A stretch of 64,000 nt of DNA. Source: Candidatus Peribacteraceae bacterium. Lineage in GTDB: Bacteria > Patescibacteriota > Gracilibacteria > Peribacterales > Peribacteraceae. Positions 18,184 through 42,301 of the stretch are shown one piece after another. Each line of letters starts with the position of its first letter. Position 1 is the stretch's first letter. The translations under genes and the position numbers were made by a program. The stretch is taken from assembly GCA_028711345.1 (NCBI GenBank), contig JAQTSK010000002.1:228-64227 (forward strand), read 5' to 3'. The notes under the pieces were generated by a model, which searched no databases, was not told where the DNA came from, and was given only the letters and a program-made list of their open reading frames with translations.

Positions 18184-18229
18184 TAGAAGCCAATATTGAC
18201 GTTGACTATCTGATGTTCTGAAATAATAA

Positions 18230-19186: not shown

Positions 19187-19295
19187 AGGTTCCTCATCAA
19201 AAGTGCGAATCCCTCGACACCAAGGACACACGACCATGCCGCTTCCATGCTACAAAGCGTTGACGTTCACAGATGAACACGAAGAGCGATCCTAC

Positions 19296-20420: not shown

Positions 20421-20431
20421 AGTGAGAAAGG

Positions 20432-23400
20432 TTAGAGAATGAGAGCTTGAGCGTGGTTGCGCCAATCCTCTCGGGTATTGAGGACAGGTTGATTAGATTG
20501 TACCGCTAAACGGAAAGTGTCAATATTATCGCGGACGGCATGGAAGAGTGTGTAGCTGTTGGGATCCCGTGCCCACTGATTAATCGCATCGAAGTACAAA
20601 TTTTGCGTGGGGATGACTGCCAATTCTGCGTGTCCTAGGAAGGTATGAGCGACCTGCGGATTGCCTGCACCGTACACTCCGGTATACGGGTTATAAGTCC
20701 AGGGGGCATCCAGGAGGTGTGAGTGATCTCCTAGGATTTCTTCGTGCCGACGGATGTACTCCTTTCCTGCTTCTGCAAATGGTCCGTTGTGTTCGGCATG
20801 CATGCATGCCGTGTGCACGGCTTGAATGATGCGGGCGTCAGCCGGTTCCAGCACACCCAACACATCAGTCCGCCCGGTACCCCAGCTGAAGGGGAGCGAG
20901 GCGCGTGCGCCCTGCGCGTCGTAACTGATGATTGCCCCGTTTTCTACGCCCGATCCGACCGTCGTCTGGAAATCCTCCGGCACGTAGCGGATCGCTCTAC
21001 TCGCGGCCAACAGGTAACTGGTGGCAAGCACACCGCAATTCCTGAGGCTTAAGCGTCCTGGGCAGCAAACCTGCAATTCCGGTTGCTCGCGGACGCCATG
21101 CCTCTGATTCAAGACTCTGCCTGCATTGAGTACCCACACGCGCAATTCAAACTCTTCTGTAGTAGGAACCGGGGGCAGATTCGCCGATTTCAGCGCATGC
21201 AGCAGGCGGAATCCGGTGCTGTTCCACCCTAATGCCGCGTTGATGACGTTGATTTGCGCGGCACCCATTTCCGAATGAGTGTGAGCCTTCCCTCCGATGG
21301 GAGACATGCCTTTGACGGTTTCTCGACTTTCACGAATGCTCTGGGCAAAGGGAGGAATGTGATCGCTGATCAGTGTGCGCATTTCTTTCCTGGTGAGTGT
21401 GCCTGCGCGCAGTGCTTGCTGTAGATCTCGCCGCACGGGCAGCGTCAGCGCATGGAGCGAATGTTCTGATGGAATAGGGAGGTCGGATGTATCGATCGTA
21501 TCAGCTTTGTCCGCCCCATCCCCATTGAACGGCATTCCAGTGGGTGAGAGATGCGAGGCGAGTGCCACCCTGCCCATTTGACGTCTGAGAAATGTGGAGA
21601 GGAGGAAGACGTAGCAGCGGAAAGAGTCTTCCGTACTCCGCAAGCTTGCCGCTTCCATTTCCGTGGGTGCGGTCTTCACCGAAATACCGAACGATTCCGT
21701 GGGGAACGACTGGACATCGGCGGCGATGGCGGCCAATTCATTGACTTGAAACTCCTCTGCCAGAATGTGATGCACCACCTGACGCGCACCATCATCCGTG
21801 AGCCCGGCCATCTGCCGCAGCAATGCGGAGACTACCTTCATCTGCTTCTGCACCTCCGTACGCACCTCCGGTGCCACTGTCTTCGGTCGGTGCCTGTCTT
21901 CTTCCTCATCTTCGTCCTCTCCCCAGTTGCGGACGAGGAGCTGTCCGATCTGCGCGACCAAGTGAGCAATGGACTCATGCAGAATCGGGTCACCGGTACT
22001 GATATGGCGGTCTGTGCACCAGTCCACGATGGTATGGGCATCGTCCGGACCGACGCATGCGGCCAATTTTCCGGTCAGTTCTTGTGCTTTGGCTGACTCG
22101 ACTTGTCGCTCGACTCGCTCTTCCGTCCATGGCAGCGTACTGATGACGTTGGGCGTGAGTTTCGCATCGGAATTCATCCCCGCACGCACAATCGCAGCGA
22201 TGTCACCGGTGGCAAAATGCTGCTGTGCACCGGATTGCAGGATTGTTGCCACGCGGTCCAATGTCCTGCGCAGCTCATGCAGGCGGTACGATTGCAGACT
22301 CGTTTGGCACTGACCCAAGACCTCCGTCACTTCCTGATGAAACTGCTGTCGGACTTCCTCCACAAAACGGGCACGCGCTTCCGCACTGTCAGCTTCTAGC
22401 TGCTCCTTACGTCTCTCGTTCTGCCGCTTCAGGCGGTAGGAGTTCGGGGGGCTGTACCCCAATGCTTTCTCATTCATTGCAAGATGGTCGATTTCAAATT
22501 GGCATGCAGCGATCTGGTCCTGCCTCTCGCGCTCCGCAACCTCAGGGAGGCGGGTGGCGTCACTGCGCGGGTCATCTTGGAACTTCGCTTGGACGGCCTC
22601 CGTCACCTCAAGATGGATCGGCGCAAAGACCCATGCCAGGATTGTCTTCACATCCTCCTCAGCAAGGAGGTCAAGTCCGTGGAGGTCTAAGAGCCGCGAT
22701 AGGGTGCGGTAGGGTTGCTCTTCCGCAAGGCGCAGTTCTTCACGGTCCGAGAATCGTGGCCCCGTCCCATTGGGGATCACCTGTGTTTCATCGATGTCGT
22801 CTCTGAAGCGCGTCTCCAGTTCGCGCAGCGTATGTTCATCGTCATAGACGGGTTCTCCCTGGTGCGGATACTGGCGCTCCAACCGGTCCAGTACGTCGAT
22901 GAGCCACGCGGGCGGTTGCAGGGGATGTTCTACCCGCGTCGCGCAATATCGGGCGTAGATCGCAGCGAGCAGGGGACCCCGGTAGGATCCCAAGCGGGAG
23001 AATGCAGCATGGAATTGTTGCAGATCCGTGAGAGATGAGGGCGAGCGCTCTGGGGGGGGGCCGGAGGGAGGCGGGTAGTCGCGGAGGGACAATGCGTGCT
23101 CCGAGGCAATCCCCGGCTTGCCGTGAACTGGCAGGCGTAGACGCTCCGGGAGCGGTCGATCGATACTGGTGAGGAGTTTCACTACTTCCTGTGGCGTTGC
23201 GTGGAGGGGGTCCGCGCGCTCCTGGACTCGATGTCTGCGGTCTCCATATGGATCATCATCCTCCTGTGTAACTCTTCCTTTGGATTGATCGAATGCATCT
23301 GCAAGTGCCGTGAGGCAGGGCTTCTGGAAGCTGGTCTGGGGCGTGGTGGTCTCCAAGATGCCCATCATCGGAGATACGGGCTTCTGTTTTTCTAGGAAAA

Positions 23401-25588
23401 TGAGGAATTCCTCCAGAGCAGCCGAACGCCGCTTCGTCGTTGTCTGCTCTATGAGTGCCAGAACATGGCGGAGGACATTGGTCGCTCGCAAGGGATTACC
23501 GATGCCATACCACTCCGTCACGCGCACGGTGCAATCGATCGCGCGTTCCTGTCCGATCCCCTCCATTGCTCCCAGCTGATATCCAGCGCGCTTGTAGGTT
23601 TCCAGTGCGTACTCGTACAGCGGTCCAGCGCGTCTGGCCATGGCCAGCGAGAGTGCGCACCCTTCTTGATTCGGCTCCACAGCGATACCGTGGCGGTAGC
23701 GAAACAAAGCGCGTCCCATTTCTTGCTCCTGCGGCCAGGTGGTGGGGATATGTTTGTGGTTCACGTATTCCTGTCTGGTGAATTCATCCTCTTCCCTCTC
23801 TTCGTCGTAATCATAAGTATTGTAAAAACCAGCACGCCTGGCCCGATACTCCATTTTTCTGATCTCCCGCAATTCACCACGAAGGGAACTGATTGCATGT
23901 TGCAAGGCATGTGCTTTCCAATCCTCAACACGACTCTGTATTTCAACTAATTCTCTTTCATCCACTAATCCCAATCCATCCACATCGACAATGCGTTGCG
24001 TGAGCTCCTTCGTGCATTGATGTCTTTCGGGATTGCAGTAGCGATCCATGACCATGGTACAACGTTGCGGGTTGACTCCTTGTTCCGATAAGCACGGAAG
24101 GTCGCGGAGAAAGGCGATTACAAAGTCCTTGCGAATATCCTCGATCGAGATCCAGGCGCCATGTTCACGCAGGAACGTGATGGCCTGCGGGTTGATTTCT
24201 CCTAGGGCTTCCTGTGCAGTTGTGAGGAGCTCCCACGTGTGCGCATCGGTTCCCTCGGGAGGGGTATTGGTTTCAGCCGGATCGAACGTCTGCTCGGCCA
24301 GACCAGCCTTCTCATTAAACCACCAAGGCAATTTTCCATTGCCGTAGATCGCCTGCACCAGATCAATGCCGTAGAGCACAGCGGCAGAGAGATCACCCGC
24401 AGCGGCGACTTTGCGAATGAGTGTAGTGAGCGATGCCATCCGCAATCCCTGTCTTAGGAACGCAGGCAGAGAGTGTAGAAAATCAATGATCCGTTCCTGT
24501 TCCAGATCTGTGCGAGTCAGCGTGTGATCAATGACGAATCCCACAGCTTCCGGCGTTAAATCGCGCATTTGTTCCTGTAACTGGCGGATGACTGCGCATT
24601 GTTCCGGTGGAAGGTGCCTCATGCGAAAGGGTGACTTTTCTTCTTGCGCGTTGCATACCAAGGGTGCGGTATGCTCCAAGCATTGCGCGATAAAGTCCGG
24701 CGGGAAGAACATGTGTCGGCGCATGGCAAAAGCCCCGCCCGCCATGGTCTCCGTACACTCCTTGGCCCACTGAAGCGGTGGTAAGCGGTGTGGCTGCGTT
24801 TTGCGGTAATGAACCGGCGCACCGAACTGAGCGTAGAACGAAGGCCAACCCATCCACGTTGCCTGCGCGCGCGCCTGTCCACCCTGCTTGAGGCGCAATT
24901 GTTCTAAACTGTAGAGCACAGCGATTTCCTGCTGTAGGATGGGGCCATTTCTGTACCGGCCGTACTGCAATTCAATTGTGTTATCCCCGCGCCATGTTAT
25001 GTACCCAGGTGACAAGGGAGCGCGTCGATCGATTACGCGTCGTTGCGTTGCGATCAGTTCTTCGGAGTTATCGTGGGCAAGGTAACGGACACTGTCGTAC
25101 TGGTTGACGTACGCGCGTCCGAAGTTGAATCCGGTATTGGGATTGCCGTGCTGCGATTTGCGGATGTTGTGGTCCGGCGGCAGTCTGAGGAGGAGCTTAC
25201 TGGTGCTCCCTGGTACATCCTCCGCCAAGCGGTACGTGAACCGGTCCGGGAGATCCGGTTGGGGGTAGGCGCTGCGTTCTCCGCTCCTGCCGTTCATCAT
25301 TTCCAAAAGCTCCCACTCTTCCTGTTCCTCGGGTGTCCGTTGCTGTCGCTCTTCCCCGCATTCTTCGCGCTCTCTATCATGCTCAGCCCAGTAGAGGTCC
25401 GTATTTCTGCGCCGTTGCTGCTCCTCGGGATCGTCATCTTCATCGCGGTAGCGGCTGCTCCTGAGCCCTGGCAGACCAGTGAGATGCATAGATATTAAAA
25501 TTGAAAGAGTGGAGCATTTTAACAAAAGTGACAAATAATGCAAATCATTATCTGATGTATCTTCAGCGGGGAGGGTATGGAACCTCAT
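20432..25588 (-). CDS. orphan giant protein (1718 aa)
   Basis: An uninterrupted 5.2-kb ORF cannot arise by chance. No P-loop, HExxH or other motif I recognise. Acidic, helical-looking N-terminal two thirds and a denser C-terminal 350 aa. The start is uncertain (25588 or 25489). Confidence 0.7.
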   Translation of the reverse strand: MRFHTLPAEDTSDNDLHYLSLLLKCSTLSILISMHLTGLPGLRSSRYRDEDDDPEEQQRRRNTDLYWAEHDREREECGEERQQRTPEEQEEWELLEMMNGRSGERSAYPQPDLPDRFTYRLAEDVPGSTSKLLLRLPPDHNIRKSQHGNPNTGFNFGRAYVNQYDSVRYLAHDNSEELIATQRRVIDRRAPLSPGYITWRGDNTIELQYGRYRNGPILQQEIAVLYSLEQLRLKQGGQARAQATWMGWPSFYAQFGAPVHYRKTQPHRLPPLQWAKECTETMAGGAFAMRRHMFFPPDFIAQCLEHTAPLVCNAQEEKSPFRMRHLPPEQCAVIRQLQEQMRDLTPEAVGFVIDHTLTRTDLEQERIIDFLHSLPAFLRQGLRMASLTTLIRKVAAAGDLSAAVLYGIDLVQAIYGNGKLPWWFNEKAGLAEQTFDPAETNTPPEGTDAHTWELLTTAQEALGEINPQAITFLREHGAWISIEDIRKDFVIAFLRDLPCLSEQGVNPQRCTMVMDRYCNPERHQCTKELTQRIVDVDGLGLVDERELVEIQSRVEDWKAHALQHAISSLRGELREIRKMEYRARRAGFYNTYDYDEEREEDEFTRQEYVNHKHIPTTWPQEQEMGRALFRYRHGIAVEPNQEGCALSLAMARRAGPLYEYALETYKRAGYQLGAMEGIGQERAIDCTVRVTEWYGIGNPLRATNVLRHVLALIEQTTTKRRSAALEEFLIFLEKQKPVSPMMGILETTTPQTSFQKPCLTALADAFDQSKGRVTQEDDDPYGDRRHRVQERADPLHATPQEVVKLLTSIDRPLPERLRLPVHGKPGIASEHALSLRDYPPPSGPPPERSPSSLTDLQQFHAAFSRLGSYRGPLLAAIYARYCATRVEHPLQPPAWLIDVLDRLERQYPHQGEPVYDDEHTLRELETRFRDDIDETQVIPNGTGPRFSDREELRLAEEQPYRTLSRLLDLHGLDLLAEEDVKTILAWVFAPIHLEVTEAVQAKFQDDPRSDATRLPEVAERERQDQIAACQFEIDHLAMNEKALGYSPPNSYRLKRQNERRKEQLEADSAEARARFVEEVRQQFHQEVTEVLGQCQTSLQSYRLHELRRTLDRVATILQSGAQQHFATGDIAAIVRAGMNSDAKLTPNVISTLPWTEERVERQVESAKAQELTGKLAACVGPDDAHTIVDWCTDRHISTGDPILHESIAHLVAQIGQLLVRNWGEDEDEEEDRHRPKTVAPEVRTEVQKQMKVVSALLRQMAGLTDDGARQVVHHILAEEFQVNELAAIAADVQSFPTESFGISVKTAPTEMEAASLRSTEDSFRCYVFLLSTFLRRQMGRVALASHLSPTGMPFNGDGADKADTIDTSDLPIPSEHSLHALTLPVRRDLQQALRAGTLTRKEMRTLISDHIPPFAQSIRESRETVKGMSPIGGKAHTHSEMGAAQINVINAALGWNSTGFRLLHALKSANLPPVPTTEEFELRVWVLNAGRVLNQRHGVREQPELQVCCPGRLSLRNCGVLATSYLLAASRAIRYVPEDFQTTVGSGVENGAIISYDAQGARASLPFSWGTGRTDVLGVLEPADARIIQAVHTACMHAEHNGPFAEAGKEYIRRHEEILGDHSHLLDAPWTYNPYTGVYGAGNPQVAHTFLGHAELAVIPTQNLYFDAINQWARDPNSYTLFHAVRDNIDTFRLAVQSNQPVLNTREDWRNHAQALIL

Positions 25589-26021
25589 TCATAGCACGAT
25601 CTTTTGATTCTTGAGCATCAGCCTGTTGTTGAGGTATCCGATTAGTTTGCGCATCTTTGTCGTTGTTCGGTTAGGGGCAAGTTTACAGGCCGCGCGATTT
25701 TCCTATTCCATAAACCGCATTAGCACCCCCTACACCAACACTGTCCCGCTTCGACTACGTTGACACTTGAAACGGATAAATTCAGCACTAGGGGCTGCTA
25801 ATTAGCGTGTAGGGGTAGGTATGTAGACGGGACAGAAACAATGAGGCGATTCCACCCAGTTTTTGAGTTTTGATGGAATGTTGCGGGTGACGAGCATCGC
25901 GGGACTCGGATGTAGGAGATATATTTCTCCGATCACAATACAAACCAGCTTCCTTTCATTTGTCAGCATGAAATACCAGCCATGAACAGAAAACTCCAAA
26001 ACTCCAAAAGTTTCCAATATA

Positions 26022-27860
26022 ATGGCTTACATGAGAACAACTCGAACAGACGCAAGGAAGCCGCGGCGCGTTGCTCAGTACATTCGCGTTTCGACTTTGG
26101 AGCAGGCGAAAGAGGGGAACAGCCTTCAGGGACAGCAGGACAGCTTGGCGAAGTACATCGAATCCAATGCAGACAGCGAGAACAATTGGGTCACCAGCAA
26201 GACGCTCGTTTACGTTGATGATGGATACTCCGGTGCGGACGATGAGCGACCCGAGTTCAAGCGCATGATGCGTGACGCCAAAGAACGGAAGTTCGACGTG
26301 CTACTTGTTTGGAAGATTGATCGGCTGTTCCGCAACACGCTCCTGCTTCTGGAGACGATCAAGGAGCTGAAGAAATATGGCGTGGAGTTCGCCTCGAAGA
26401 ACGAGCTGATCGACACGTCCAAGTCCACAGGCAGATTCCTCCTGACGATTCTTGGCGCCATTGCCGAGATGGAGCGCGAGACCATCCGCGAGCGCACAAT
26501 CATGGGCAAGATTACGAGCGCAAAGAACGGAAATTACGTCGGAGGAAAGTACCCGCCCTTCGGTTATGACGTGGATAAGCACGGCAAGATGGTCATCAAC
26601 AAAGACGAGGCAAAAATCGTACTTGAAATATTCACGATGCTCGTAGAAGAGAAGAAGACCCAAACACAGATTGCCAAGATACTCACTGCCCGCAGAGTTC
26701 CCACGAAGTCAGACCGCGTGGGAGTGGAGCGTCGGACGAATCAGGTGGGTTTTTGGGGTCAGGCTGCGATCGCTGCGATTTTACTGAAGGACGAATATGC
26801 AGGAACGTACTACTACGGCAAGCGTGAGACCTACCTGAACGAGAACGAAGACAAGCGCCAGCGGGAACGCCCCCGTGAGGAATGGATTCCTCTGCCGTGC
26901 CCCGAGATCATCCCGAAACCCATGTTCGACAAGGCGCGACTGATTGCGCGTGAGAACGAGCAATATTCCATTCGTGCCTCGGATCATGTCTACCTGCTCC
27001 GCAGCAAAGTCTACTGCGGCGAATGCGGCGGCAGATACCAAGGCTATCCCAAGAAGAAAAAGGGCATCGTGTACTTCAATTACCATTGCAGCCGGAAGAA
27101 TCCGGGCAAGAGTGAGAAGCCGTGCTTGAACAAAGAGATGTCCGAAAAGAAGCTGGATGTCATCGTATGGAAGACAATCGATGAGCTGCTCAGTGATCCC
27201 AAAGCAACGCTCAAGGCGTTCGATACCAAGATGCGAGAAGAGTCGAAGGCTGCCGAGTACCAGTCTCAGATTAAAGATTATCAAGATGAGCTGGATGAGA
27301 AGGACAAGGAGCTGGGACGCTTGGTGGCTGCCATGAAGCGAGGGAAGATGTCCGATGCGATCTACGACAATGAGGTGGACACGACCAATACCGAGATGGC
27401 GACCATCCGTACCGAAATTGCCCGACTCGGGAATCTCCTTTCCACAGAGCTGGAGCGAGAAGAGCTGAAGAAGTCACTGGCGAGACTTGCGACCGAATAT
27501 CGCAAGAAATACGGCAAAATTGACCGGAAGACACAGGAAGTGATCATCCGAAAGCTTGTAAACAAAGTGGTTATCCACGCTTCGGGCAAAATCACTGTGG
27601 ATTACGCAATCCCGACAATTCAAAATCGGGTATTTAAATGTGGTGGAGATGCCGGGAGTCGAACCCGGGTCCAACGTGTACGCCGACGGTCAGTACGATC
27701 ATGGTCTTCTCAGTTCTCTCATCCCCTGAGAGAAGAACAGAGAAAGGGTGAGAGTGATGACGCTGTATTCAGGAGTCCGTCACGTCAGTCGGAATCCAAC
27801 CCCGCTAGTGACGTTTCACCCGTCCAGCGAGGATCAACGGGGAAACGTGGTCCGAAGTGA
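26022..27860 (+). CDS. large serine recombinase (integrase); last 68 codons are antisense ssrA
   Basis: Resolvase catalytic domain VAQYIRVSTLEQ..DDGYSG..RPEF, recombinase domain, zinc ribbon CGECGG..YHCSRK, coiled-coil. The ORF reads through the att core into the tmRNA gene. Confidence 0.85.
   Translation: MAYMRTTRTDARKPRRVAQYIRVSTLEQAKEGNSLQGQQDSLAKYIESNADSENNWVTSKTLVYVDDGYSGADDERPEFKRMMRDAKERKFDVLLVWKIDRLFRNTLLLLETIKELKKYGVEFASKNELIDTSKSTGRFLLTILGAIAEMERETIRERTIMGKITSAKNGNYVGGKYPPFGYDVDKHGKMVINKDEAKIVLEIFTMLVEEKKTQTQIAKILTARRVPTKSDRVGVERRTNQVGFWGQAAIAAILLKDEYAGTYYYGKRETYLNENEDKRQRERPREEWIPLPCPEIIPKPMFDKARLIARENEQYSIRASDHVYLLRSKVYCGECGGRYQGYPKKKKGIVYFNYHCSRKNPGKSEKPCLNKEMSEKKLDVIVWKTIDELLSDPKATLKAFDTKMREESKAAEYQSQIKDYQDELDEKDKELGRLVAAMKRGKMSDAIYDNEVDTTNTEMATIRTEIARLGNLLSTELEREELKKSLARLATEYRKKYGKIDRKTQEVIIRKLVNKVVIHASGKITVDYAIPTIQNRVFKCGGDAGSRTRVQRVRRRSVRSWSSQFSHPLREEQRKGESDDAVFRSPSRQSESNPASDVSPVQRGSTGKRGPK
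27639..27654. repeat. attR core within the ssrA 3' end
   Basis: TGTGGTGGAGATGCCG. Its reverse complement is the CGGCATCTCCACCA acceptor/CCA end of the tmRNA plus 2 nt. Confidence 0.7.
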
Positions 27861-32263: not shown

Positions 32264-32702
32264 AAATTGAAAATTGTAAATTGAAAAAGGAAAATTAATG
32301 TTTTGAATTATTTTCTTTCGAAGATTTTATGATGGCCACCAAGAGGCGGATGATCTCATTAATATCACTCAAAAGAGAAGTGCCTTCTACTTGGCTAAAA
32401 TAACAGCTATCACGCAGGAGGAGAATCCAGAACCGTGTTTCATATGCCTCTTTCAGTGCAATAGAAAGCTTTGAAATGAAATCTGCCCTACTTTGCCCTT
32501 GCAGCGATTCCTCGATGTTCGCGCCAACACTTGTTCCTGAGCGCAGCAGTTGCTTGCTCATTACATATTCCCTTTTCGATTCCGTAAGAAATTGATATGC
32601 CTTCACAATTCGCAGTGCAAAGGCAAAACTTTTCTCCCGGACGATATTCTTTTTCTCCATAACAATTTTCAATTTTCCTTTTTCAATTATCAATTGTAAA
32701 GC
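32263..32702. repeat. inverted-repeat-flanked cassette carrying four-helix-bundle gene 1
   Basis: Perfect 18-bp inverted repeat AATTGAAAAAGGAAAATT (32279-32296) / AATTTTCCTTTTTCAATT (32671-32688) within longer low-complexity arms. Confidence 0.75.
32295..32660 (-). CDS. four-helix-bundle protein ('23S rRNA intervening sequence protein' family)
   Basis: ..SFAFALRIVKAYQFL......YVMSKQLLRSGTSVGANIEE......DFI.KL.IALKEA.ET.FWL.LL... Start set at MEKKNIV. Confidence 0.8.
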   Translation of the reverse strand: MEKKNIVREKSFAFALRIVKAYQFLTESKREYVMSKQLLRSGTSVGANIEESLQGQSRADFISKLSIALKEAYETRFWILLLRDSCYFSQVEGTSLLSDINEIIRLLVAIIKSSKENNSKH

Positions 32703-35700
32703 TCACTTCTTCTTGAACCGGATTTTGAGCTTCCTACGGACGACGTCGATCTCATGAATTTCCGCCTCGTCGCACGGACGGATCTCCGAACGGGTTTCGC
32801 TTTCGATGAGATCCTTGTGAGCGGAGACAATCTCATCGCCGCCGTCGACCTGCAACGTGATGGTGTCGGTGAACTCGAGTCCGCTTTCTTTGCGAAGCGT
32901 CTGGATTGCATGGATCAGTTCTCGGGCAGCACCCTCATTCTCCAATGCTTCATTTACAGCAATATCCAGCGTGACAACGATGCCTCGGTTGGCGGCGACG
33001 GTCTGCCCTTCCTTGCTCTGATGAATGATCTTCGCCTCCTCGGGTGACAGTGTCTCGCCGAGGATGATGATGACACCGTCCTTCTCCTCGAATTTGCCTT
33101 CTTTTCCTGCCTTGATCACTTCCTGCACTTTCTTGCCGAGTCGCGGACCGACTTTGCGCGCATCGACCTGTACAATTGAAGATGCGAGTGCGGAGGCATC
33201 CGTCGTTCTGATGACCTGTTTCACGTTCAGTTCCTCTTTGATCAGCTCCGTGACGACACCGACGGCATCGGACGGCGGCAGAGCGAAAGTGACGGATTGC
33301 AGAGGTTGGCGGACGCGGATCTTGGCATCCGATCGGAGTGAGAGGCCGAGAGTTACAACCTGCCGGGTGCTTTCCATCAGTTGCAGCAGCTTCTGATCTT
33401 CTTCATTGATTTGAACGGACACCGGCCAGTCGGTGAAGTGGATGCTGCCGTGATCTTCTTCGACGAGATTGAGGTAGATCGCCTCGGTGACGAACGGGCA
33501 GAACGGCGCGAGCAATTGGCAGTTGGCGATGATGACGCGGTAGAGCGTATCCAGCGCATCGGTTCCGCCTTCTTCCTTGGCGCTGAAACGCCGCCTGCTC
33601 AACCGGACATACCAGTTCGTCAGATCATCGATGGAATCGGCGAGGTGCGCGCAGGTGGCGGAGAGGTCGTAGCCGTCCAGTTCCGTCGTCATATTGTTCA
33701 CCAGTTCCTGCGTCTTGAGGATGATCCAGCGATCCAGCTGATTCGTCGATGTCCCATTCTTGAGCGACGAATCCAACGACGGTTTCCAGTTCGCCGCATT
33801 GGCGTACGTCACGAAGAGCCGGTACGTGTTCCACAGCGGCAGGAGCACTGATCGCACCGTCTCCTCCACCAGCTTCTCAGAGAACCGCAGATCTTCTCCT
33901 CTGACTGCGGGTGATGCCATCAATGCAAACCGGACGGCATCGGCGCCGTGTTTCTTCACCACTTCCGTCGGCTCGGGGTAGTTCTTGAGGCGCTTACTCA
34001 TCTTCTTGCCGTCCTCCGCCAGCACGATCCCGTTGACGACGCAGTGCTTGAACGCGGGGCATTTGAACAGAGCACTGGAGAGCACCATGAGCGTGTAGAA
34101 CCACCCGCGCGTCTGATCCAGCCCCTCCGCGATGAAGTCCGCGGGGAAGCCGACCGGACTGTCCGATTTCACCTCGAACGGGAAATGATCCTGCGCGTAG
34201 GGCATGGAACCGGATTCGAACCAGCAATCAAGCACTTCCTCGATGCGGCGCATCTGCGGACGGAGTGTGATGTTCACGGGAGCGCCATTCCTTGGTTGTA
34301 CCTGCGGCATATCTTCATATGCGATGCCTTCCGCGACCATCCTGAACGCTTGTGAGAAGCCTCCATGTGATATGAGGAGCACGCGTTTCCCCGCATATTC
34401 TTTCAAGAGAAAATCATGTGCACGCTGCGCCCGTTCGATGAATCGGTCGAATGATTCACCGTTCGGCCCGGCGGAACGCGAAAAGCAAATACCTTTGAAG
34501 GCCTTGTCATTCAGCAATGATTCAATGTCCTTCACCGGTTTCATGTCCCACTCCCCGACATTCCGTTCGGTGAAGAGTTCCCCTTCTTTCACGTCCGCAA
34601 CCCCCAGTTCCTTGGCGATGATTGTTGCCGTTTCTTTCGCCCTCTTCAGGGGAGAAGAGATGATCACATCAAACTGCTGACCTTTCAGCTGCTCGGCGGC
34701 TTGCTTCGCCTGTGTCCTGCCCGTCTTGTTCAGTTTCGTGTCCGCTCCGCTGCCCTGTACGATTTTCAGTTTGTTCAAGTCGGTCTCCCCGTGCCTGACC
34801 AGCGTCACTTCCACCTCACTGCCTTTATTGCCCTTACTGCCTTCACTGCCTTTATTCCAAACAATTCCATCCACCGATTCCTTATGCAGATCCATCTGCG
34901 CATTCCTCTCGTGGTCCCAGTAGAAGGTGCGCAGCGACGCGAGAGCGGGGTACGGCTGATGCACGATCTTGTTCGGCTCCTGTCCCGTGAAGAAGTGGAC
35001 AATGTTCATGATGGGGTCCGCGTGTGTCACGATCGAAATGGATTCTCCCCGATGCTTCGGCAGAATTTCCTTGAGGAACGATTCCACGCGTCTGCCGACG
35101 TCCGCCCACGTCTCCATGCCGTGGAAGTGGTAGATGCTTTCCACCTGCCCCTGCTCCAGTTTGTGCGCTCTGCGTTCGCGGACGAAGGTGAGATCGTCGA
35201 AATCCACGTGCTTGCCCTCGTACTCCCCGAAATCCACTTCCTTCAGCCGCTCATCGATGATAATTTTTGCGCCCGTTGCCTTGGCCACGGCTTCGGCCGT
35301 CTCCCGCGTGCGCCTAAGCGGCGAGCAGTAGATGACCTTCACGGGCAGACTGTCGGCCTGCTCTTTCAGCCGGTCAGCGAGCGCTTTCGCTTGCTGTTGC
35401 CCGTTGTCCGTGAGAGGAGTGGACGGTTCCTTGCACTGGTAGATTTTGTCGACGTTGCCCTGACTTTCCGCATGACGCGAGATGAAGATTTTCGTGAAGC
35501 GCGTCGGCGCTTTGGCCATCAGTTCGCTGCGCGAGCCGATCACTTCCACCTCGCCGGTCGTCGTATTGCGCCAGATGGGCAGCGGCGTGCCCCAGAAGCG
35601 GTTTCTGGAAATCGCCCAGTCTCTCGCTCCCTCCAGCCATTTGCCGAACCGTCCGTCGCGGAGGTGGGAGGGTACCCACTGCGTCTGTGCATTGGACTTG

Positions 35701-37016
35701 AGCATTGTTTCCTTGATCTTCTCCACCGCGACGAACCACGAGCTGGTCGCGTAGTTGAGGAGAGGTGTGTCGCACCGCCAGCAGTGAGGGTAACTATGGG
35801 TGACGGTGTAGCTGTCGAAGTGGCGGCCCATCTCCTTGAGTTTGCGGATGATCGCCTTATCGGTGCTCATCGGATCTTTGCCTTCGGGCTTGATCAGCAT
35901 GCCCTTAAAATCAGTGACTTCACTGAAGAAATTGTTATCCGTCGTCACGTGGTGCAGGACGTCGACCTTCAGCTTCTTGGCCAGCTCGAAGCCGTCTTCG
36001 CCGTAGGAGGTCGTCATGTGGACGATGCCCGTTCCTTCGTCCTCCGACACTTCCGGATGCAGCAGAATGTTGAATGCTTTCTCGCCGTACGTGACGGGCT
36101 TTCCTTCTGCGGCCGATGACGGCAGCACCTTGTCGACGAAATAGTTGAAGAGGGGAACGTACTTCTTGCCGACCAGTTCCGATGCTTTGATGTCGCCGGT
36201 GATCTCGTATGTCCGTTTCTTGAAGATCTTCTCGACCAGCTTTTTGGCGACAATGTACGTCGTATCGCCCTCTTTGACTTTGACGTAGTGAATCTCATCT
36301 TTCATCGCCAGCCAGATGTTCCCCGGCAGCGACCACGGCGTCGTCGTCCAAGCGAGGATCACCGTTTTCGGATCGTCTACGAGTGGAAAGGTCATGATTA
36401 CGGATTGGTCCGTCCGGTCCCGGTAGCCCTGCGTTACTTCGAAATTGGAGAGCGGTGTCACGCAGCGGGGGCAGATGTGCATCGACTTGTATCCCTCGTA
36501 GATCAGCTTCTGTTCATGGAGCTGCTTGAATACCCACCAGATACTTTCCATGTAATCCGCATCCATCGTGCGGTAATCCCAGTCCATGTCCACGAAGCGG
36601 CCGAGGCGTTCGACGGTCGATCTCCATTCCCCCGTGTAGCGCTGGACGGCGGTGCGGCAAAGGTTGTTGAAGTTGGCGATACCCAAGGTTTCGATGTCCT
36701 TCTTGGAGGTAAGCCCCTTCTCCTTTTCGATCTCGTTCTCCACCGGCAGTCCGTGGCAGTCCCAGCCGAAGCGGCGCTTCACGAACTTCCCGCGCATGGT
36801 TTGGTACCGCGGGATGACGTCTTTGATGGTGCCGGCGAGGATGTGGCCGTAGTGCGGTAAGCCGGTTGCAAACGGCGGTCCGTCGTAGAAGCTGAAGATC
36901 TCCCCCTTCTCGCGGCGGTGCATGGAGCGCTTGAAGGTGTCTTCCTCGCGCCAGTACTTCAGGATCCCGAGCTCGAGGTCGGGGAGGGATTGCTTGGGGT
37001 CAACGGAGTCGAACAT
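32703..37016 (-). CDS. ileS: isoleucine--tRNA ligase (type 2) with two inserted histidine-phosphatase domains
   Basis: HYGH and KMSKR class-I motifs; editing and anticodon-binding regions present. Extra RHAES.. (34902-35504) and RHGET.. (34257-34814) phosphoglycerate-mutase-like domains. Confidence 0.9.
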   Translation of the reverse strand: MFDSVDPKQSLPDLELGILKYWREEDTFKRSMHRREKGEIFSFYDGPPFATGLPHYGHILAGTIKDVIPRYQTMRGKFVKRRFGWDCHGLPVENEIEKEKGLTSKKDIETLGIANFNNLCRTAVQRYTGEWRSTVERLGRFVDMDWDYRTMDADYMESIWWVFKQLHEQKLIYEGYKSMHICPRCVTPLSNFEVTQGYRDRTDQSVIMTFPLVDDPKTVILAWTTTPWSLPGNIWLAMKDEIHYVKVKEGDTTYIVAKKLVEKIFKKRTYEITGDIKASELVGKKYVPLFNYFVDKVLPSSAAEGKPVTYGEKAFNILLHPEVSEDEGTGIVHMTTSYGEDGFELAKKLKVDVLHHVTTDNNFFSEVTDFKGMLIKPEGKDPMSTDKAIIRKLKEMGRHFDSYTVTHSYPHCWRCDTPLLNYATSSWFVAVEKIKETMLKSNAQTQWVPSHLRDGRFGKWLEGARDWAISRNRFWGTPLPIWRNTTTGEVEVIGSRSELMAKAPTRFTKIFISRHAESQGNVDKIYQCKEPSTPLTDNGQQQAKALADRLKEQADSLPVKVIYCSPLRRTRETAEAVAKATGAKIIIDERLKEVDFGEYEGKHVDFDDLTFVRERRAHKLEQGQVESIYHFHGMETWADVGRRVESFLKEILPKHRGESISIVTHADPIMNIVHFFTGQEPNKIVHQPYPALASLRTFYWDHERNAQMDLHKESVDGIVWNKGSEGSKGNKGSEVEVTLVRHGETDLNKLKIVQGSGADTKLNKTGRTQAKQAAEQLKGQQFDVIISSPLKRAKETATIIAKELGVADVKEGELFTERNVGEWDMKPVKDIESLLNDKAFKGICFSRSAGPNGESFDRFIERAQRAHDFLLKEYAGKRVLLISHGGFSQAFRMVAEGIAYEDMPQVQPRNGAPVNITLRPQMRRIEEVLDCWFESGSMPYAQDHFPFEVKSDSPVGFPADFIAEGLDQTRGWFYTLMVLSSALFKCPAFKHCVVNGIVLAEDGKKMSKRLKNYPEPTEVVKKHGADAVRFALMASPAVRGEDLRFSEKLVEETVRSVLLPLWNTYRLFVTYANAANWKPSLDSSLKNGTSTNQLDRWIILKTQELVNNMTTELDGYDLSATCAHLADSIDDLTNWYVRLSRRRFSAKEEGGTDALDTLYRVIIANCQLLAPFCPFVTEAIYLNLVEEDHGSIHFTDWPVSVQINEEDQKLLQLMESTRQVVTLGLSLRSDAKIRVRQPLQSVTFALPPSDAVGVVTELIKEELNVKQVIRTTDASALASSIVQVDARKVGPRLGKKVQEVIKAGKEGKFEEKDGVIIILGETLSPEEAKIIHQSKEGQTVAANRGIVVTLDIAVNEALENEGAARELIHAIQTLRKESGLEFTDTITLQVDGGDEIVSAHKDLIESETRSEIRPCDEAEIHEIDVVRRKLKIRFKKK

Positions 37017-37045: not shown

Positions 37046-38998
37046 GTGGTACACTCCCGCTCTATGGGAGAACTCCGGAGAGCTTTCCGGTCATCCATCG
37101 GGTATCTGTCCGCGCAGGATCTGGAAGCGGTCATGGCGGCTCTGGATGCAGCGGAACGATGCCATGCGGGTCAGATGCGGGAATCCGGTGAGCCGTACGT
37201 TTCCCATCCGCTGACGACGGCATTGTATCTGGCGCAGCTGGAAGCCGGACGGGATACGCTGATGGCGGCGCTTCTTCATGATGTCATCGAGGACGGTGGC
37301 GCGACGGACGCGGAGGTGATGGCGCAGTTCGGGTCGGTGGTCGCGTCATTGGTTCAGGGTGTCACCAAGATCGAAAAAACACGTTTCGAAGGCGATCCTT
37401 CGTTCCGTCAGGTCGCATCGTTACGCAAGCTGCTCCTCGTCGCGGCAGAAGATGTACGTGTCCTCGTGATCAAAATTGCGGACCGGCTTCATAACGTAGA
37501 AACGTTGGCCTCACTCCGTCCCGACAAGCAGGAGCGCATCGCACGGGAGACGCTGGAAATCTATGTACCCTTTGCTCGCACACTGGGACTGTGGGAGTGG
37601 AAACGGCGCATGGAAGAACGTTGTTTTCCGCTTGCCTATCAGGAGGAAAGCGCACGTTGGCGTATGGCGATCGCGGAGCGGCGAGTCGCGCTGGCTGACG
37701 AGCGGAACCGTTTCGTGGCACAGTTCAATGAAGTGACGGAGAAGCGCGTCGAGCCGGCACTGGTTCCGATGACGGACTACGAACTCTTTCAGCGGCTGTA
37801 CCGTGATCCTGCCAGGCTTGCACAGTCCAGCCAGATTGATTCGGTGGAAGTCATCATCCGGCATGCGGCATCCCCTCTCGATTGCTACCGTGTCGTGGGT
37901 GAAATACACACCCGTTACCCCGTGCGTTCGCTGTCATTCCGTGACTTCATCAATGCACCGCAGCCGAGCGGATATCGCGCACTGCATACGACGGTCTTTC
38001 TCGCGAAGGATCACGAGCTTCGGCTCCGTATCCTCACGGAGGAAATGGCGATGTTCTCCTCACGGCGCAAGCTCACGGACTGGACGGAGCAGCGGGACTC
38101 CGATATTCGCATCGCGCTCTCGTCCTTAAGCCAAACGGGGTTCGACCGGCACCGGTACATGACCGACCTGAAGGATACCGTTCTGGATCGGATGAATGTG
38201 TTCACGACGGGCGGGGAGATTTTGTCGCTGCCGAGGGGTGCGACAGGTGTGGACTTCGCCTTCTCCGTCAATCCGGACTATCTCTCGTCGCTCGCAGGTA
38301 TCCGCGTGAACGGCGAGCTGTACGAGGCCATCCATGAACTGAAGGACGGCGATACCGTGGAATTGTCGCTGCTCGACGCCCCTCAGAGCGGCACGGACAT
38401 GCGTGTGATGTGGATGGAAAAAATGAAGTCCGCGGAAGCACGCACTTCATTGCAGCAGGAACTCAAGAAGCTTTCCGCAGACGATCAACGCGCCGCCGGA
38501 TACGATTTATTGAAATATGAAGCGCAGAAACGTCGTCTGCCGCTCTGGTGGATTTCCTCAAGTGCGAAGATGCAGCGGCGGCTCGCGGCCGGTCTCGGCA
38601 TTGAGCGCTTCGATCAGGTGCTGACCAGAGTCGGCTCCGGCGAACTGGGGGTCCGGACGGTCATCGAGAAATATCGTGAACTGCTGGAAATGCCGGGCAT
38701 GCTGTTATGGATTCTTCGTTTCTTTCGTCTTTTGCCCCATTCAAGAGTCCAGGATAAGGAAGCGATGATCATGAAGATCGATGTTCTCGCCAACGACGTT
38801 CCGGGCATGATTTACAATGTTTCCAAGTGTTTCGCGGAACGGAGGATCAACATCGCGGACTTCAAGGTGTACGCGGTACCGCCGGACAGCGCTCTCTACC
38901 ACATTCGTTGCGAAGCGAAGAGCTTTGACGAGTTCTCGGATCTCTTCGATGCGCTGGGGCAGGTGCCGAATGTGAAGCGGGTCTTGCGTAAGAAATGA
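37046..38998 (+). CDS. rel: bifunctional RelA/SpoT-homolog (p)ppGpp synthetase/hydrolase
   Basis: HD domain (HPL..ALLHDVIED), synthetase domain (..GYRALHTTV..), TGS and ACT regions. The start may be ATG 37064. Confidence 0.9.
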   Translation: MVHSRSMGELRRAFRSSIGYLSAQDLEAVMAALDAAERCHAGQMRESGEPYVSHPLTTALYLAQLEAGRDTLMAALLHDVIEDGGATDAEVMAQFGSVVASLVQGVTKIEKTRFEGDPSFRQVASLRKLLLVAAEDVRVLVIKIADRLHNVETLASLRPDKQERIARETLEIYVPFARTLGLWEWKRRMEERCFPLAYQEESARWRMAIAERRVALADERNRFVAQFNEVTEKRVEPALVPMTDYELFQRLYRDPARLAQSSQIDSVEVIIRHAASPLDCYRVVGEIHTRYPVRSLSFRDFINAPQPSGYRALHTTVFLAKDHELRLRILTEEMAMFSSRRKLTDWTEQRDSDIRIALSSLSQTGFDRHRYMTDLKDTVLDRMNVFTTGGEILSLPRGATGVDFAFSVNPDYLSSLAGIRVNGELYEAIHELKDGDTVELSLLDAPQSGTDMRVMWMEKMKSAEARTSLQQELKKLSADDQRAAGYDLLKYEAQKRRLPLWWISSSAKMQRRLAAGLGIERFDQVLTRVGSGELGVRTVIEKYRELLEMPGMLLWILRFFRLLPHSRVQDKEAMIMKIDVLANDVPGMIYNVSKCFAERRINIADFKVYAVPPDSALYHIRCEAKSFDEFSDLFDALGQVPNVKRVLRKK

Positions 38999-40145: not shown

Positions 40146-40163
40146 TCGGTGATAGAAACTCGT

Positions 40164-40658
40164 TCATCGGGAACCCAAAGATGTCGGGATTGTGTTGAGG
40201 ATGTACCGCTTCACATTCGCGAATATCTCCGTCCTCTCATCCATCACCTCGATCTCTCCCCGCGTGAACCACCGCATTTCCCTCGCTTCGAACGCATCCA
40301 GAACGAGGGCTTGCGATTCATCGATCGGCCGCGCGAGGAAGAGGAAGTCCATGTGCTGATGCGCGGGTTCATTCCGTTCTTTCGATTCGGGAATATTTTC
40401 GAGGAGCATCGCAATGGGCTTCTTCAACATCCGGCCCTCATTCGGATTGCCCGCAAACAGATCAGCCTGGTCCTCGCCGACGATCTCCACGTCCAGCCCC
40501 GTCTCCTCTTTGCACTCACGCCGCGCGGTTTCCTCCGGCGTCTCATCCGGGTCCACGTGTCCGCCCGGTGGCATCCAGCGCTGAAGACGTTTGTGCCAGA
40601 GAAGGAGCGTGCGGTGCCGCGAATCGAGGATGAAGGCGGTGGTGGTGAAGTGGCGCAC
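40164..40658 (-). CDS. NUDIX hydrolase
   Basis: Nudix box GGHVDPDETPEETARRECKEETG. The track N-terminal extension runs through the repeat arm and the opposite-strand gene, so a GTG start at 40658 is proposed. Confidence 0.7.
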   Translation of the reverse strand: MRHFTTTAFILDSRHRTLLLWHKRLQRWMPPGGHVDPDETPEETARRECKEETGLDVEIVGEDQADLFAGNPNEGRMLKKPIAMLLENIPESKERNEPAHQHMDFLFLARPIDESQALVLDAFEAREMRWFTRGEIEVMDERTEIFANVKRYILNTIPTSLGSR

Positions 40659-40660
40659 GG

Positions 40661-41136
40661 GAGAAAGGGAGGATGAGAGGATGGAGAGGTGAGAGAGGAT
40701 GAGAGGAAGGATGTTGTGATACAATTGAAGCTTCCTATGGCAGAGCGCCCATATCAGAGGCTGATCGCTTGGAAGGAAGCTCATGCTCTCTGCCTGCGAG
40801 TATATGAGTATACGAAAAAATTTCCATCCGAAGAGCAATATGGATTGAGGTCTCAGATGCGTCGTTCAGCGTATAGCGTTCCGACGAACATAGCAGAAGG
40901 CAACGGACGAAAAACGATTCCTGACAAAAGGCATTTTTTGGATATCGCGACCGGTTCCATTGAGGAGTTGCACTACCAGTGCATTCTTGCACGTGATCTG
41001 CACTACATAACTGCCGAGGTTTGCATTGAGCTGCATGATCGCATCCAACGTACCGGTTACCTCATCCACAAACTGAGACTTTCATTGTAGATTTCTTCTC
41101 ATCCTCTCATCCTCTTTTTCTTCTCATCCTTTCTTC
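40661..41136. repeat. inverted-repeat-flanked cassette carrying four-helix-bundle gene 2
   Basis: Purine-rich arm built of GGATGAGAGG words (40661-40713). Complementary CCTCTCATCC-word arm (41092-41136). Imperfect. Confidence 0.65.
40737..41090 (+). CDS. four-helix-bundle protein ('23S rRNA intervening sequence protein' family)
   Basis: ..YQRLIAWKEAHALCLRVYEYTKKFP.EE.YGLRSQMRRSAYSVPTNIAEG......D...FL.IA.GS.EEL.YQ..LARDL.. Confidence 0.8.
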   Translation: MAERPYQRLIAWKEAHALCLRVYEYTKKFPSEEQYGLRSQMRRSAYSVPTNIAEGNGRKTIPDKRHFLDIATGSIEELHYQCILARDLHYITAEVCIELHDRIQRTGYLIHKLRLSL

Positions 41137-41152
41137 GTGCGATTATTCCTTC

Positions 41153-42136
41153 TTATCGCTCCGTTCCAAGAGTCAGCATCATCACCTCCGGCGGCGCGGA
41201 CAGTCTCACTCTCGGCCCCGATTCGCCGACACCGCGCGTGATCGCCAATGTCGAACCGCTCTGTAGCGTGAAGATGCCCTGATCGAATCGCTGGGGGATG
41301 TGGATGGGGAGCGTCGAGAGTGCACCGTACCACGGGAGCCGGATCTGACCGCCGTGCGTGTGACCGGAGACGATGAGCTGTGCCTGCGATGCCAGAGGGT
41401 CCAGGACGACGTCCGGATTGTGGGCGAGCAGGATCGTCGGCGTCCCGGGAGCAATGCCGTCGAAAGCACCGACGATATCGGCTTTGCCGGCCCACGGATC
41501 GTCGATGCCTGTGATCGTAAGAGTCTCGGTTCCCAGGTTGACAGTAGTATTCGTGTTCTTGAGTACGGTGATGCCGAACGATTGCAGCGTCTCCATCACC
41601 AGATCGGCTCTGTCGGACGAGGGTCGTTTCTTGGGCAGGAGTGAGCGCGATATCCCGTGATCCTGATTGCCGAGCACGGCGAACGTCCCCACGGTGGGCC
41701 GGAGGTTCTTGAGCGGCGCGAGTGCCGTGAGTTCGGCGTTCGTCACCTCACTCGACAGGACGAAATCGCCGTCCAGCACGATGATGTCGGGTAGCAGCGC
41801 ATTGGTCCGGCTCACGAGGCGTTCGACGAACGTCCGTCCTTTGTACGGTCCGACGTGCAGGTCGGAGATGACGACGATTTTGACCGGATGCTCGAGGGGG
41901 AAGGGAATGTCCGCTGTCGTCACGGTGATGATCCGGGGTTCGATGAACGAGCCGTACATGGAAAGCAGAACGCCGAGGAAGCAGGTCCATCCGACGGCTC
42001 TCACACCGAGTCGCGCAGCCAAACGTCTGCGGGGATTTTTGCGGAGCCACACACGGGCAGCCACCGAGATACCGCATCCGAATGCGAGGACGGAGAGGAT
42101 GATGATGTCGAACGGGAAGGTGAGCAGCGAAAACAT
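41153..42136 (-). CDS. membrane-anchored metallophosphoesterase (YkuE-like)
   Basis: ISDLHVG, LDGDF, GNQDH, GHTHGGQ calcineurin-like motifs after two TM segments. Confidence 0.8.
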   Translation of the reverse strand: MFSLLTFPFDIIILSVLAFGCGISVAARVWLRKNPRRRLAARLGVRAVGWTCFLGVLLSMYGSFIEPRIITVTTADIPFPLEHPVKIVVISDLHVGPYKGRTFVERLVSRTNALLPDIIVLDGDFVLSSEVTNAELTALAPLKNLRPTVGTFAVLGNQDHGISRSLLPKKRPSSDRADLVMETLQSFGITVLKNTNTTVNLGTETLTITGIDDPWAGKADIVGAFDGIAPGTPTILLAHNPDVVLDPLASQAQLIVSGHTHGGQIRLPWYGALSTLPIHIPQRFDQGIFTLQSGSTLAITRGVGESGPRVRLSAPPEVMMLTLGTER

Positions 42137-42210
42137 CGCGGCACAGTATGACGGGTTCAACCCAAGAGCCAATTGCCAAGAGACGAGCGGTGTAGGGGAA
42201 TAGGGGAGTA

Positions 42211-42301
42211 GCACGTGCGTGTTGCACGTGGTCGCATGGGCATCGTGCCCATGGCGGTGTCACGGCGACAATCGCCGTGCAACCATCGGCTATAAGCCGA
42301 T
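42211..42301. repeat. four consecutive 19-nt hairpins
   Basis: CACGTGC-GTGTT-GCACGTG, CATGGGCA-TCG-TGCCCATG, CACGGCGA-CAA-TCGCCGTG, CATCGGCT-ATAA-GCCGATG, starting at 42211, 42234, 42260 and 42283. Confidence 0.8.

Follow-up and report, generated by a model that had tools for sequence, protein, structure and literature searches.

The 64,000-nucleotide stretch of contig JAQTSK010000002.1 analysed here (the window) comes from an uncultivated groundwater Peribacteraceae bacterium of the candidate phyla radiation (CPR). On its minus strand, at positions 32703–37016, lies an ileS gene encoding an isoleucyl-tRNA synthetase (IleRS) of 1437 residues in which two histidine phosphatase domains, referred to here as D1 and D2, are embedded. 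The gene is one unbroken open reading frame (ORF), and its product scores 820.7 bits on the NCBIfam model TIGR00392 (ileS; cutoff 621.4), which places it within that equivalog. Pfam recognizes tRNA-synt_1, Anticodon_1 and DUF5915 in the protein together with two His_Phos_1 stretches, and its best PDB matches are 9w01_B, 8wnd, 6ldk and 1ile. An identical protein in NCBI (P0001) is labelled Candidatus Peribacteraceae bacterium. The parts of the gene, from the N-terminus of the protein to its C-terminus, are as follows.

32703–37016, minus strand: the whole ileS gene, a type-2 (eukaryote/archaea-like) IleRS with two embedded phosphatase domains (TIGR00392)
36417–37016, minus strand: residues 1–200, first half of the Rossmann catalytic fold, with HYGH at residues 55–58 (motif conservation)
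35787–36416, minus strand: residues 201–410, the editing domain, connective peptide 1 (CP1) (motifs and PDB chains 1wk8 and 1wny)
35505–35786, minus strand: residues 411–504, return of the CP core, CP2, the CP2-3 linker (ARDWAISRNRFWG) and the start of CP3
34902–35504, minus strand: residues 505–705, D1, a histidine phosphatase at CP3 site A (Pfam PF00300)
34851–34901, minus strand: residues 706–722, the native CP3 helix AQMDLHKESVDGIVWNK that joins the two inserts (structure alignment)
34809–34850, minus strand: residues 723–736, a low-complexity flexible linker (GSEGSKGNKGSE) (microsatellite found by Tandem Repeats Finder, TRF)
34257–34808, minus strand: residues 737–920, D2, a second histidine phosphatase at site B, the tip of the CP3 hairpin (Pfam PF00300)
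33747–34256, minus strand: residues 921–1090, final CP3 strand, second half of the Rossmann fold with KMSKR at residues 1005–1009, and the stem-contact fold
33267–33746, minus strand: residues 1091–1250, helical anticodon-binding domain (Pfam Anticodon_1 at residues 1095–1241)
32703–33266, minus strand: residues 1251–1437 and the stop codon, C-terminal DUF5915 domain typical of type-2 IleRSs (PF19302 at residues 1257–1436)

The synthetase into which the two domains are set retains its signature residues throughout. HYGH (residues 55–58) and KMSK (residues 1005–1008) are invariant in all 120 homologues aligned, and the same is true among the homologues for the residues of the isoleucine pocket (Pro 47, Pro 48, Trp 932, Asp 967, Gln 968 and Trp 972), for the GWDCHG motif, and for the editing motifs WTTTPW (Trp 223, Thr 224, Thr 225, Thr 226 and Trp 228) and GTG.V (Gly 328, Thr 329, Gly 330 and Val 332); His 333 and Asp 341 of the editing site are conserved in at least 90% of them. 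Residues 411–504 (WGTPLPIW ... SRSELMAKA), for which the domain boundaries were set from PMC7955072 and PMC7191050, are colinear with the yeast and Candida IleRSs. No second IleRS was found within the 64-kb window. With the motifs of the synthetic and editing sites all intact, the 1437-residue protein is, judged by its sequence, probably the organism's working IleRS.

The segment that receives both domains, between the 'ARDW..SRNR.WG' CP2-3 linker and 'DCWFESGS', falls by published boundaries in CP3, which comprises residues 459–526 in yeast IleRS (PMC7955072) and 473–534 in Candida IleRS (PMC7191050). It is small and structurally variable between IleRSs, with a ββαα arrangement in Candida and a βααββ arrangement plus a zinc motif in Thermus (PMC7191050), and the CP2-3 linker that immediately precedes it lines the pocket that takes the CCA end of the tRNA (PMC7955072). 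Alignments of the window protein to the human (9w01), yeast (8wnd/7d5c), Candida (6ldk) and Thermus (1ile) structures end at about residue 504 and restart at about residue 921. The human residues that match these two breaks are 493 and 517, some 24 apart, and about 416 residues thus stand where other type-2 IleRSs have a connector of about 24. A construct from which the inserts had been deleted (residues 440–504, 706–722 and 919–1010) aligned with the human, yeast, Candida and Thermus enzymes as one colinear stretch with gaps of only 1–3 residues; AQMDLHKESVDGIVWNK is therefore native IleRS, and D1 and D2 occupy two separate insertion points around it. This bridge aligns with SDLHRESVDHLTI of the human and TDLHRDVIDKLTI of the yeast enzyme, and within its native element DLHKESVD the residues Asp 709, Leu 710, His 711 and Asp 716 are invariant among homologues.

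D1 enters behind the first CP3 helix and ahead of the DLHKESVD helix (site A), and D2 enters at the tip of the hairpin (site B), the same hairpin that bears the zinc knuckle in Thermus. A microsatellite with a 9-bp unit, AAAGGCAGT, repeated 4.1 times at 34818–34854 (TRF) and reading K-G-S, encodes the linker ahead of D2. No other region of the protein is so poorly conserved or so rich in gaps in the 120-sequence alignment; the length of the linker varies widely among homologues, and in a model of residues 1–1200 its residues 724–729 have a predicted local distance difference test score (pLDDT) below 50. An initial annotation, made from the sequence of the window alone, had described an IleRS of 1437 residues, about 400 more than normal, with two independent insertions on either side of a conserved segment. 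The structural alignments bear this out, the coordinates it gave, 34257–35504, correspond exactly to residues 505–920, and the motifs it quoted (RHAES and THAD, RHGET and SHGG, and the linker NKGSEGSKGNKGSE) are all present.

Both inserted domains are intact histidine phosphatases as far as their residues can tell. PF00300 matches the protein with 275 bits over two stretches (gathering cutoff 21.7), the match in D2 spanning residues 738–927. In D1, Arg 514, His 515 (codon 35472–35474), Asn 521, Arg 569, Glu 593 and His 665 are present in 120 of 120 homologues; most members of the family have RHA and THA in this domain in place of RHG and SHG. In D2, Arg 741, His 742 (codon 34791–34793), Asn 748 and Arg 792 are found in 119 of 120, the lone gap being a single-domain variant (P0099), while Glu 817 is found in all 120 and His 884 in 117. 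Of 408 inserted copies over all hosts and sites described below, 398 retain the complete R-H..R..E..H set; the ten that do not include two truncated fragments. We consider that the catalytic residues of D1 and D2 are under strong purifying selection, since they are invariant or nearly so, like HYGH and KMSK. From this set of residues we infer that each domain would hydrolyse a phosphomonoester through a phosphohistidine intermediate on His 515 or His 742.

This conservation bears directly on the view that the two domains are inert spacers or structural elements, or remnants of selfish in-frame insertions, kept only because their removal would disrupt the IleRS. Such an origin would suit the structural variability of CP3 among IleRSs, the microsatellite nature of the linker, and the nuclease and transposase domains found in related enzymes, which hint at insertion driven by mobile elements. 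A structural role alone would not, however, preserve R-H..R..E..H, which is kept over deep divergence as strictly as the signature motifs of the synthetase itself, and the view is hardly credible. The initial annotation had likewise taken both domains to keep their catalytic residues and had named the loss of these residues in homologues as the sign of inert spacers; the homologues retain them. No Hint, intein or homing-endonuclease family appeared in the Pfam scan of the whole protein, and we rejected an intein or other self-splicing insertion, as there is no Hint domain and the inserts are conserved enzyme domains. A recent tandem duplication was also ruled out, because D1 and D2 are only 37% identical, and that only across 97 residues, and belong to different site-specific lineages.

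In an AlphaFold2 model of the isolated insert the pLDDT is 88.6 overall and about 90 or above for D1 and D2, with a predicted template modelling score (pTM) of 0.53. The model of residues 1–1200 has a pLDDT of 85.4 and a pTM of 0.82, and the bridge (residues 706–722), disordered in the model of the isolated insert, is ordered in it. Because the bridge is ordered and the pTM is 0.82 as against 0.53 for the isolated insert, the models suggest that D1 and D2 pack against the IleRS body and do not hang loosely from it. The nearest structures found by Foldseek are PhoE (1h2e), PspA (4ij5/4ij6), mycobacterial hydrolases, GpgP and CobC, with TM-scores of 0.74–0.80 and a probability of 1.00 for the matches to 1h2e, 4ij5 and 6e4b. 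True dPGM structures match the inserts less well (TM 0.62–0.69), and D1 and D2, at 185–200 residues, are shorter than dPGM, which has about 230–250 residues and a C-terminal tail.

Scored separately, neither domain reached the NCBIfam equivalog cutoffs for dPGM, CobC, PspA or SixA. A dPGM identity was rejected on scores of 109.6 (D1) and 72.4 (D2) for dPGM_arch against a cutoff of 225, and of 26.6 and 47.6 for pgm_1 against 81.7; CobC (TIGR03162) was rejected on scores of 96.5 and 110.0 against 162.9, the score of 195.6 bits for the whole protein on that model being the sum of D1 and D2. On profile scores and predicted structure the two domains thus resemble small phosphatases of the PhoE/PspA/CobC type and not true phosphoglycerate mutases, and the term 'PGM-like', under which they had initially been annotated, does not hold.

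The arrangement is shared by more than 120 homologue clusters (54–74% identity, 1419–1545 residues) with the same Pfam composition, drawn from NCBI, JGI, ENA and Logan assemblies in which some contigs exceed 1 Mb. When one genome per species in GTDB was scanned with an alignment of the insert alone, at least 157 species were found to encode a relative of it. The best 80 of the 157 are labelled Peribacteria, Peribacteraceae, Peribacterales or Peregrinibacteria, save one from Gracilibacteria and a few labelled only as Patescibacteria. The two-phosphatase arrangement is accordingly read, from its distribution and conservation, as ancient, vertically inherited and under purifying selection throughout Peribacterales. 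Variants within the family include an enzyme with D1 only (P0099, 1270 residues), enzymes in which D2 is duplicated (P0069 and P0103, about 1640 residues) and one with an additional GNAT domain in the CP1 region (P0019).

Such recurrence also disposes of an artefact of assembly, which the initial annotation had raised as a way in which its reading might fail, or of gene calling, whether a chimeric contig or a neighbouring gene fused by a frameshift. Nothing was found in favour of an artefact. The ORF is single and uninterrupted, the native bridge is conserved between the inserts, and independent assemblies repeat the same architecture in more than 120 clusters and in at least 157 GTDB species; the probability of an artefact is negligible. 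Conservation and recurrence between them essentially exclude both this explanation and that of the inert spacer, and we hold the architectural part of our interpretation, two phosphatase domains inserted in the CP3 of a functional-looking IleRS, with high confidence. The proteins are already in public databases, labelled 'isoleucyl-tRNA synthetase/phosphoglycerate mutase' or '/PhoE' in JGI and 'class I tRNA ligase family protein' in NCBI. In full-text literature on IleRS or aminoacyl-tRNA synthetases together with histidine phosphatase or phosphoglycerate mutase and on CPR, we found no published description of the insertion, its sites or its recurrence, and the Peribacteria genome paper is silent on the fusion.

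To survey the hosts of related domains, 1.84 billion representatives were searched exhaustively with the insert as query and the long matches were mapped onto the IleRS core; a further search used P0159. Among the top 150 representative matches, 25 distinct proteins of at least 700 residues were mapped, and all 25 have an IleRS- or ValRS-like core. Outside the synthetases, the nearest relatives of the insert include many free-standing proteins of about 405–430 residues made up of two tandem His_Phos domains (P0133, P0135, P0138, P0140 and others). A His_Phos domain occurs in almost all type-2 IleRSs of Gracilibacteria, Peregrinibacteria and Peribacteria, where four sites are used: A and B in CP3, site C in the second half of the Rossmann fold between DCWFESG and DQTRGW, and site D past KMSK and ahead of the anticodon-binding domain. 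A BLAST-anchored census of these sites was too imprecise near the 17-residue bridge, and a motif-anchored census was used instead, which placed 174 full-length proteins; 62 others lacked one landmark motif under the regular expressions used. The layouts were distributed over the 174 proteins as follows.

A+B: 103
D only: 23
B only: 14
A only: 9
C+D: 9
B+D: 3
C only: 3
Two copies, A and B not resolved from each other: 3
A+B+B: 2
B+C+D: 2
One copy, A and B not resolved from each other: 2
A+D: 1

For 295 of 300 copies the nearest neighbour in another protein sits at the same site, and His_Phos identity is 33–58% within a site as against 24–32% between sites. The copies cluster by site, and A, B, C and D therefore represent four old, separately inherited phosphatase lineages. 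In a related IleRS of 1504 residues (P0336) there is no His_Phos domain, and two tandem HAD phosphatases occupy site C instead (residues 567–760 and 769–965). They are 44.5% identical to each other with their DxDG[TV] motifs intact (FDFDGV and FDNDGV), and to judge by these motifs a fold unrelated to His_Phos has here taken its place while offering the same chemistry. A further case is provided by the ValRS of Candidatus Sungbacteria (P0255 and P0392–P0412), in which a His_Phos domain lies between the two CxxC halves of the CP3 zinc knuckle. Such clusters number about 25, with lengths of about 870–1070 residues compared with about 700 for ordinary CPR ValRS, and this different CPR lineage is best read as having gained its His_Phos domain independently. 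One ValRS fragment (P0130) carries four His_Phos copies.

Considered together, the repeated acquisition at several sites, the fact that most relatives keep one copy or more, the substitution of HAD domains in P0336, the convergence in ValRS and the confident docked model are the reasons for which we propose that the phosphatases are coupled to the synthetase. D1 and D2 would be tethered accessory phosphomonoesterases with a job tied to that of the enzyme that carries them, each using the conserved Arg/Arg/Glu/His set around its nucleophile, His 515 in D1 or His 742 in D2. Most likely they would dephosphorylate some nucleotide-type ligand that the enzyme encounters; candidates are a tRNA whose 3′ end is blocked by phosphorylation, and an adenylate or other nucleotide species. 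This statement as a whole is put forward tentatively, with chances a little below even, and the substrate and the coupling to aminoacylation in particular are a guess. We give much lower odds to a glycolytic mutase or an inert spacer.

Several observations weigh against a coupled function. The same permissive sites, or CP1, hold quite different domains in relatives (P0019, P0353, P0359, P0326, P0288 and P0337 bear other in-frame inserts), among them GNAT, P-loop kinases of the AAA_33, AAA_18 and Zeta_toxin families, a serine hydrolase, DUF559/MTES_1575 nucleases and an IS200-type Y1 transposase domain, and the IleRS of this clade may be a general hotspot for domain accretion. The number of copies ranges from one to four and their position is not fixed, which fits loose tethering and an unrelated passenger equally well. 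Charge analysis gave no sign of an RNA-binding surface, D1 and D2 being near-neutral with median isoelectric points of 6.5 and 7.9, and this charge lends no support to a blocked tRNA 3′ end as substrate; nor did we find a contact between CP3 and tRNA reported in the IleRS papers. The genomic context of the free-standing protein P0133 (locus L082) offers no hint of function. PADLOC, finally, returned no match for D1, D2, the adjacent RelA/SpoT homologue (RSH) or the neighbours, apart from a weak one of the NUDIX protein to PDC-S07 (27.5 bits, E 4.7e-07).

The main rival explanation is a passenger, or Rosetta-stone, enzyme. On this view D1 and D2 are active phosphatases that do ordinary metabolic work (as a broad PhoE-like, phosphoserine or sugar-phosphate phosphatase, or a short phosphoglycerate mutase); they would have settled in loops where an abundant, essential protein of a streamlined genome tolerates insertions, and would be mechanistically unrelated to aminoacylation. 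The generic PhoE/PspA/CobC-like character of the domains, which reach no specific equivalog, agrees with this, as do the variable copy number and position, the many unrelated families at the same sites, the neutral charge and the existence of the composite JGI labels. A terminal fusion would, however, be far easier to achieve than repeated internal insertion, and a passenger accounts poorly for the repeated gain of one chemistry in IleRS and ValRS, at four sites, by HAD replacement and in another CPR lineage, for the fact that all mapped large hosts in the exhaustive search are IleRS- or ValRS-like, and for a model whose pTM suggests docking on the body. We regard this explanation as rather unlikely, and still as one to be taken seriously.

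The proposal of tethered accessory phosphatases can be carried further. Bacterial toxSAS toxins pyrophosphorylate the CCA end of tRNA and thereby prevent its charging (bioRxiv 10.1101/2021.04.30.441581; PMC11559606). In several CPR lineages phosphatase chemistry might belong integrally to class Ia synthetases, as an accessory that evolved again and again. It would take a blocking phosphate or pyrophosphate off the 3′ end of the tRNA, or off an adenylate-type ligand, in cis immediately before charging. We consider this wider form improbable; if it were true, such cis unblocking would constitute a built-in tRNA end-repair or anti-toxin step and a new form of synthetase-resident quality control beside editing.

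A different kind of protection would be that of the synthetase itself, with the phosphatases clearing an inhibitory phosphate from the synthetase or a partner protein, or detoxifying a phosphorylated or phosphoramidate aminoacyl-adenylate mimic aimed at IleRS or ValRS. The His_Phos superfamily includes protein Ser/Thr/His and phosphohistidine phosphatases (PGAM5, Sts and SixA), kinases of the HipA type phosphorylate synthetases close to the ATP site and so inactivate them, and resistance to adenylate-mimic antibiotics makes use of GNAT and serine-hydrolase enzymes. Domains of these last two kinds are also inserted in related IleRSs, and SixA is among the weaker NCBIfam matches of the inserts. 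The case is one of analogy throughout, however; SixA scores lie under the cutoff, no cognate kinase or toxin was seen near ileS in the window, PADLOC was negative as described above, and self-protection of this kind would seem distinctly improbable.

The genes around ileS were the basis of the functional link that had been suggested at the outset, namely that the phosphatases process Ap4A or (p)ppGpp alongside the products of nearby genes. A divergent RSH gene, a NUDIX hydrolase gene and a metallophosphoesterase gene are indeed all present in the window. The RSH gene (37046–38998, plus strand) is divergent from ileS, with the start codons 29 bp apart, the NUDIX gene lies at 40164–40838 on the minus strand with its Nudix box GHVDPDETPEETARRECKEETGL at 40494–40562, and the metallophosphoesterase gene lies at 41153–42214. 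The RSH protein is long and has a strong HD_4 hydrolase match, TGS and ACT matches and a weak, partial match to the RelA_SpoT synthetase domain (34 bits, profile positions 36–99 of 113), and it may be biased towards hydrolysis. A 175-residue ORF at 40149–40676 on the plus strand, which overlaps the NUDIX gene, is probably spurious.

Across related loci this neighbourhood is conserved loosely at best. RSH occurs within about 4.5 kb upstream in 30 of the 63 loci with enough upstream sequence, at variable distance and orientation and in divergent arrangement in eight of them, and a NUDIX gene is also close to RSH in locus L001. The metallophosphoesterase gene was seen in one of 81 related loci, although the flank examined barely reaches its position in the window. 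The suggested link is weakened accordingly: the adjacency of RSH and ileS and the recurrence of RSH speak for it, while the synteny is loose, and the Sungbacteria ValRS and the other IleRS layouts are independent of this neighbourhood. Histidine phosphatases are, moreover, phosphomonoesterases, and they are not known to cleave pyrophosphate or anhydride bonds such as those of Ap4A or ppGpp. A role in the turnover of these nucleotides is on these grounds highly improbable.

The only consistent synteny of ileS is with a small holin_4_2-like membrane protein encoded downstream of it in 64 of 81 related loci. In the window a gene for a 23S_rRNA_IVP four-helix bundle protein (32295–32693, minus strand) lies directly downstream of ileS in a dip of GC content (about 0.41 against about 0.56); it is found in one of 81 related loci and looks like a recent insertion between ileS and the conserved membrane-protein gene. 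The IVP, radical-SAM and ICMT neighbours each occur in at most one of the 81 related loci, for some of which genes the flank examined barely reaches.

The closest known systems each share part of this architecture. Type-2 IleRSs (Thermus thermophilus 1ILE, yeast 7D5C/8WND, Candida 6LDK and human 9W01) have the same order of Rossmann fold, CP core, CP1, CP2, CP3, anticodon-binding domain and DUF5915 and share the HIGH, KMSK, isoleucine-pocket and editing motifs with the window protein, whose CP3 has about 480 residues, two complete enzymes included, compared with about 65, and which lacks the CP3 zinc motif of the Thermus enzyme. Small histidine phosphatases (PhoE/YhfR 1H2E, PspA 4IJ5, CobC 6E4B and GpgP 4QIH) have the fold of D1 and D2, with the TM-scores given above, a length of about 185–200 residues and the complete catalytic set RH(G/A), N, R, E and H, whereas D1 and D2 are not free-standing but internal inserts, each forming its own conserved, site-specific lineage.

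The closest curated precedent for an IleRS with a second catalytic domain is NCBIfam NF040702, 'isoleucine--tRNA ligase, N-acetyltransferase domain-containing'. GNAT-bearing relatives of the window IleRS family exist (P0019, with its GNAT in the CP1 region, and others), whereas the window protein scores 273 bits on this model against a cutoff of 1999, has no GNAT match in Pfam and carries phosphatases in CP3 instead. In the bifunctional RNase H/acid phosphatase (NF005567, Rv2228c type) a His_Phos_1 domain is likewise joined covalently to a nucleic-acid enzyme, and D1 and D2 each match its phosphatase half at about 100 bits, far under the cutoff of 326; there, however, the fusion is end to end and the partner enzyme different, whereas here the domains are inserted internally. 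The T4 Pnkp type combines a P-loop kinase with a HAD 3′-phosphatase in RNA end healing, and PFK-2/FBPase-2 combines a P-loop kinase with a His_Phos domain. Related IleRSs pair His_Phos or HAD domains with AAA_33/Zeta-type P-loop kinase inserts, an analogy of chemistry only, and the window protein itself has no kinase domain.

Aminoacyl-tRNA synthetases are among the most conserved enzymes, and to our knowledge those of bacteria have seldom gained new catalytic modules within their cores. In the present family a second enzymatic activity would be maintained inside IleRS across a whole order of uncultivated bacteria, and the convergence represented by the four sites, the HAD replacement and the ValRS would point to a real link, in these bacteria with their minimal genomes, between the removal of phosphate and the charging of tRNA. 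It is through this convergence that the finding, a class Ia synthetase with embedded second enzymes, should interest specialists in synthetases and in CPR. The 'IleRS/phosphoglycerate mutase' and 'IleRS/PhoE' labels could also inflate the glycolytic capacity inferred for CPR genomes.

Elsewhere in the window there is a probable integrated mobile element at 15514–27860, comprising a gene for a Prim-Pol protein (15514–17829), an ORF of 1718 residues without a Pfam match (20432–25588) and a gene for a large serine recombinase (26022–27860). Two fused shikimate-pathway genes occupy 52604–55986 on the plus strand, the first encoding EPSP synthase joined to shikimate kinase (52604–54391) and the second dehydroquinase joined to shikimate dehydrogenase (54391–55986).

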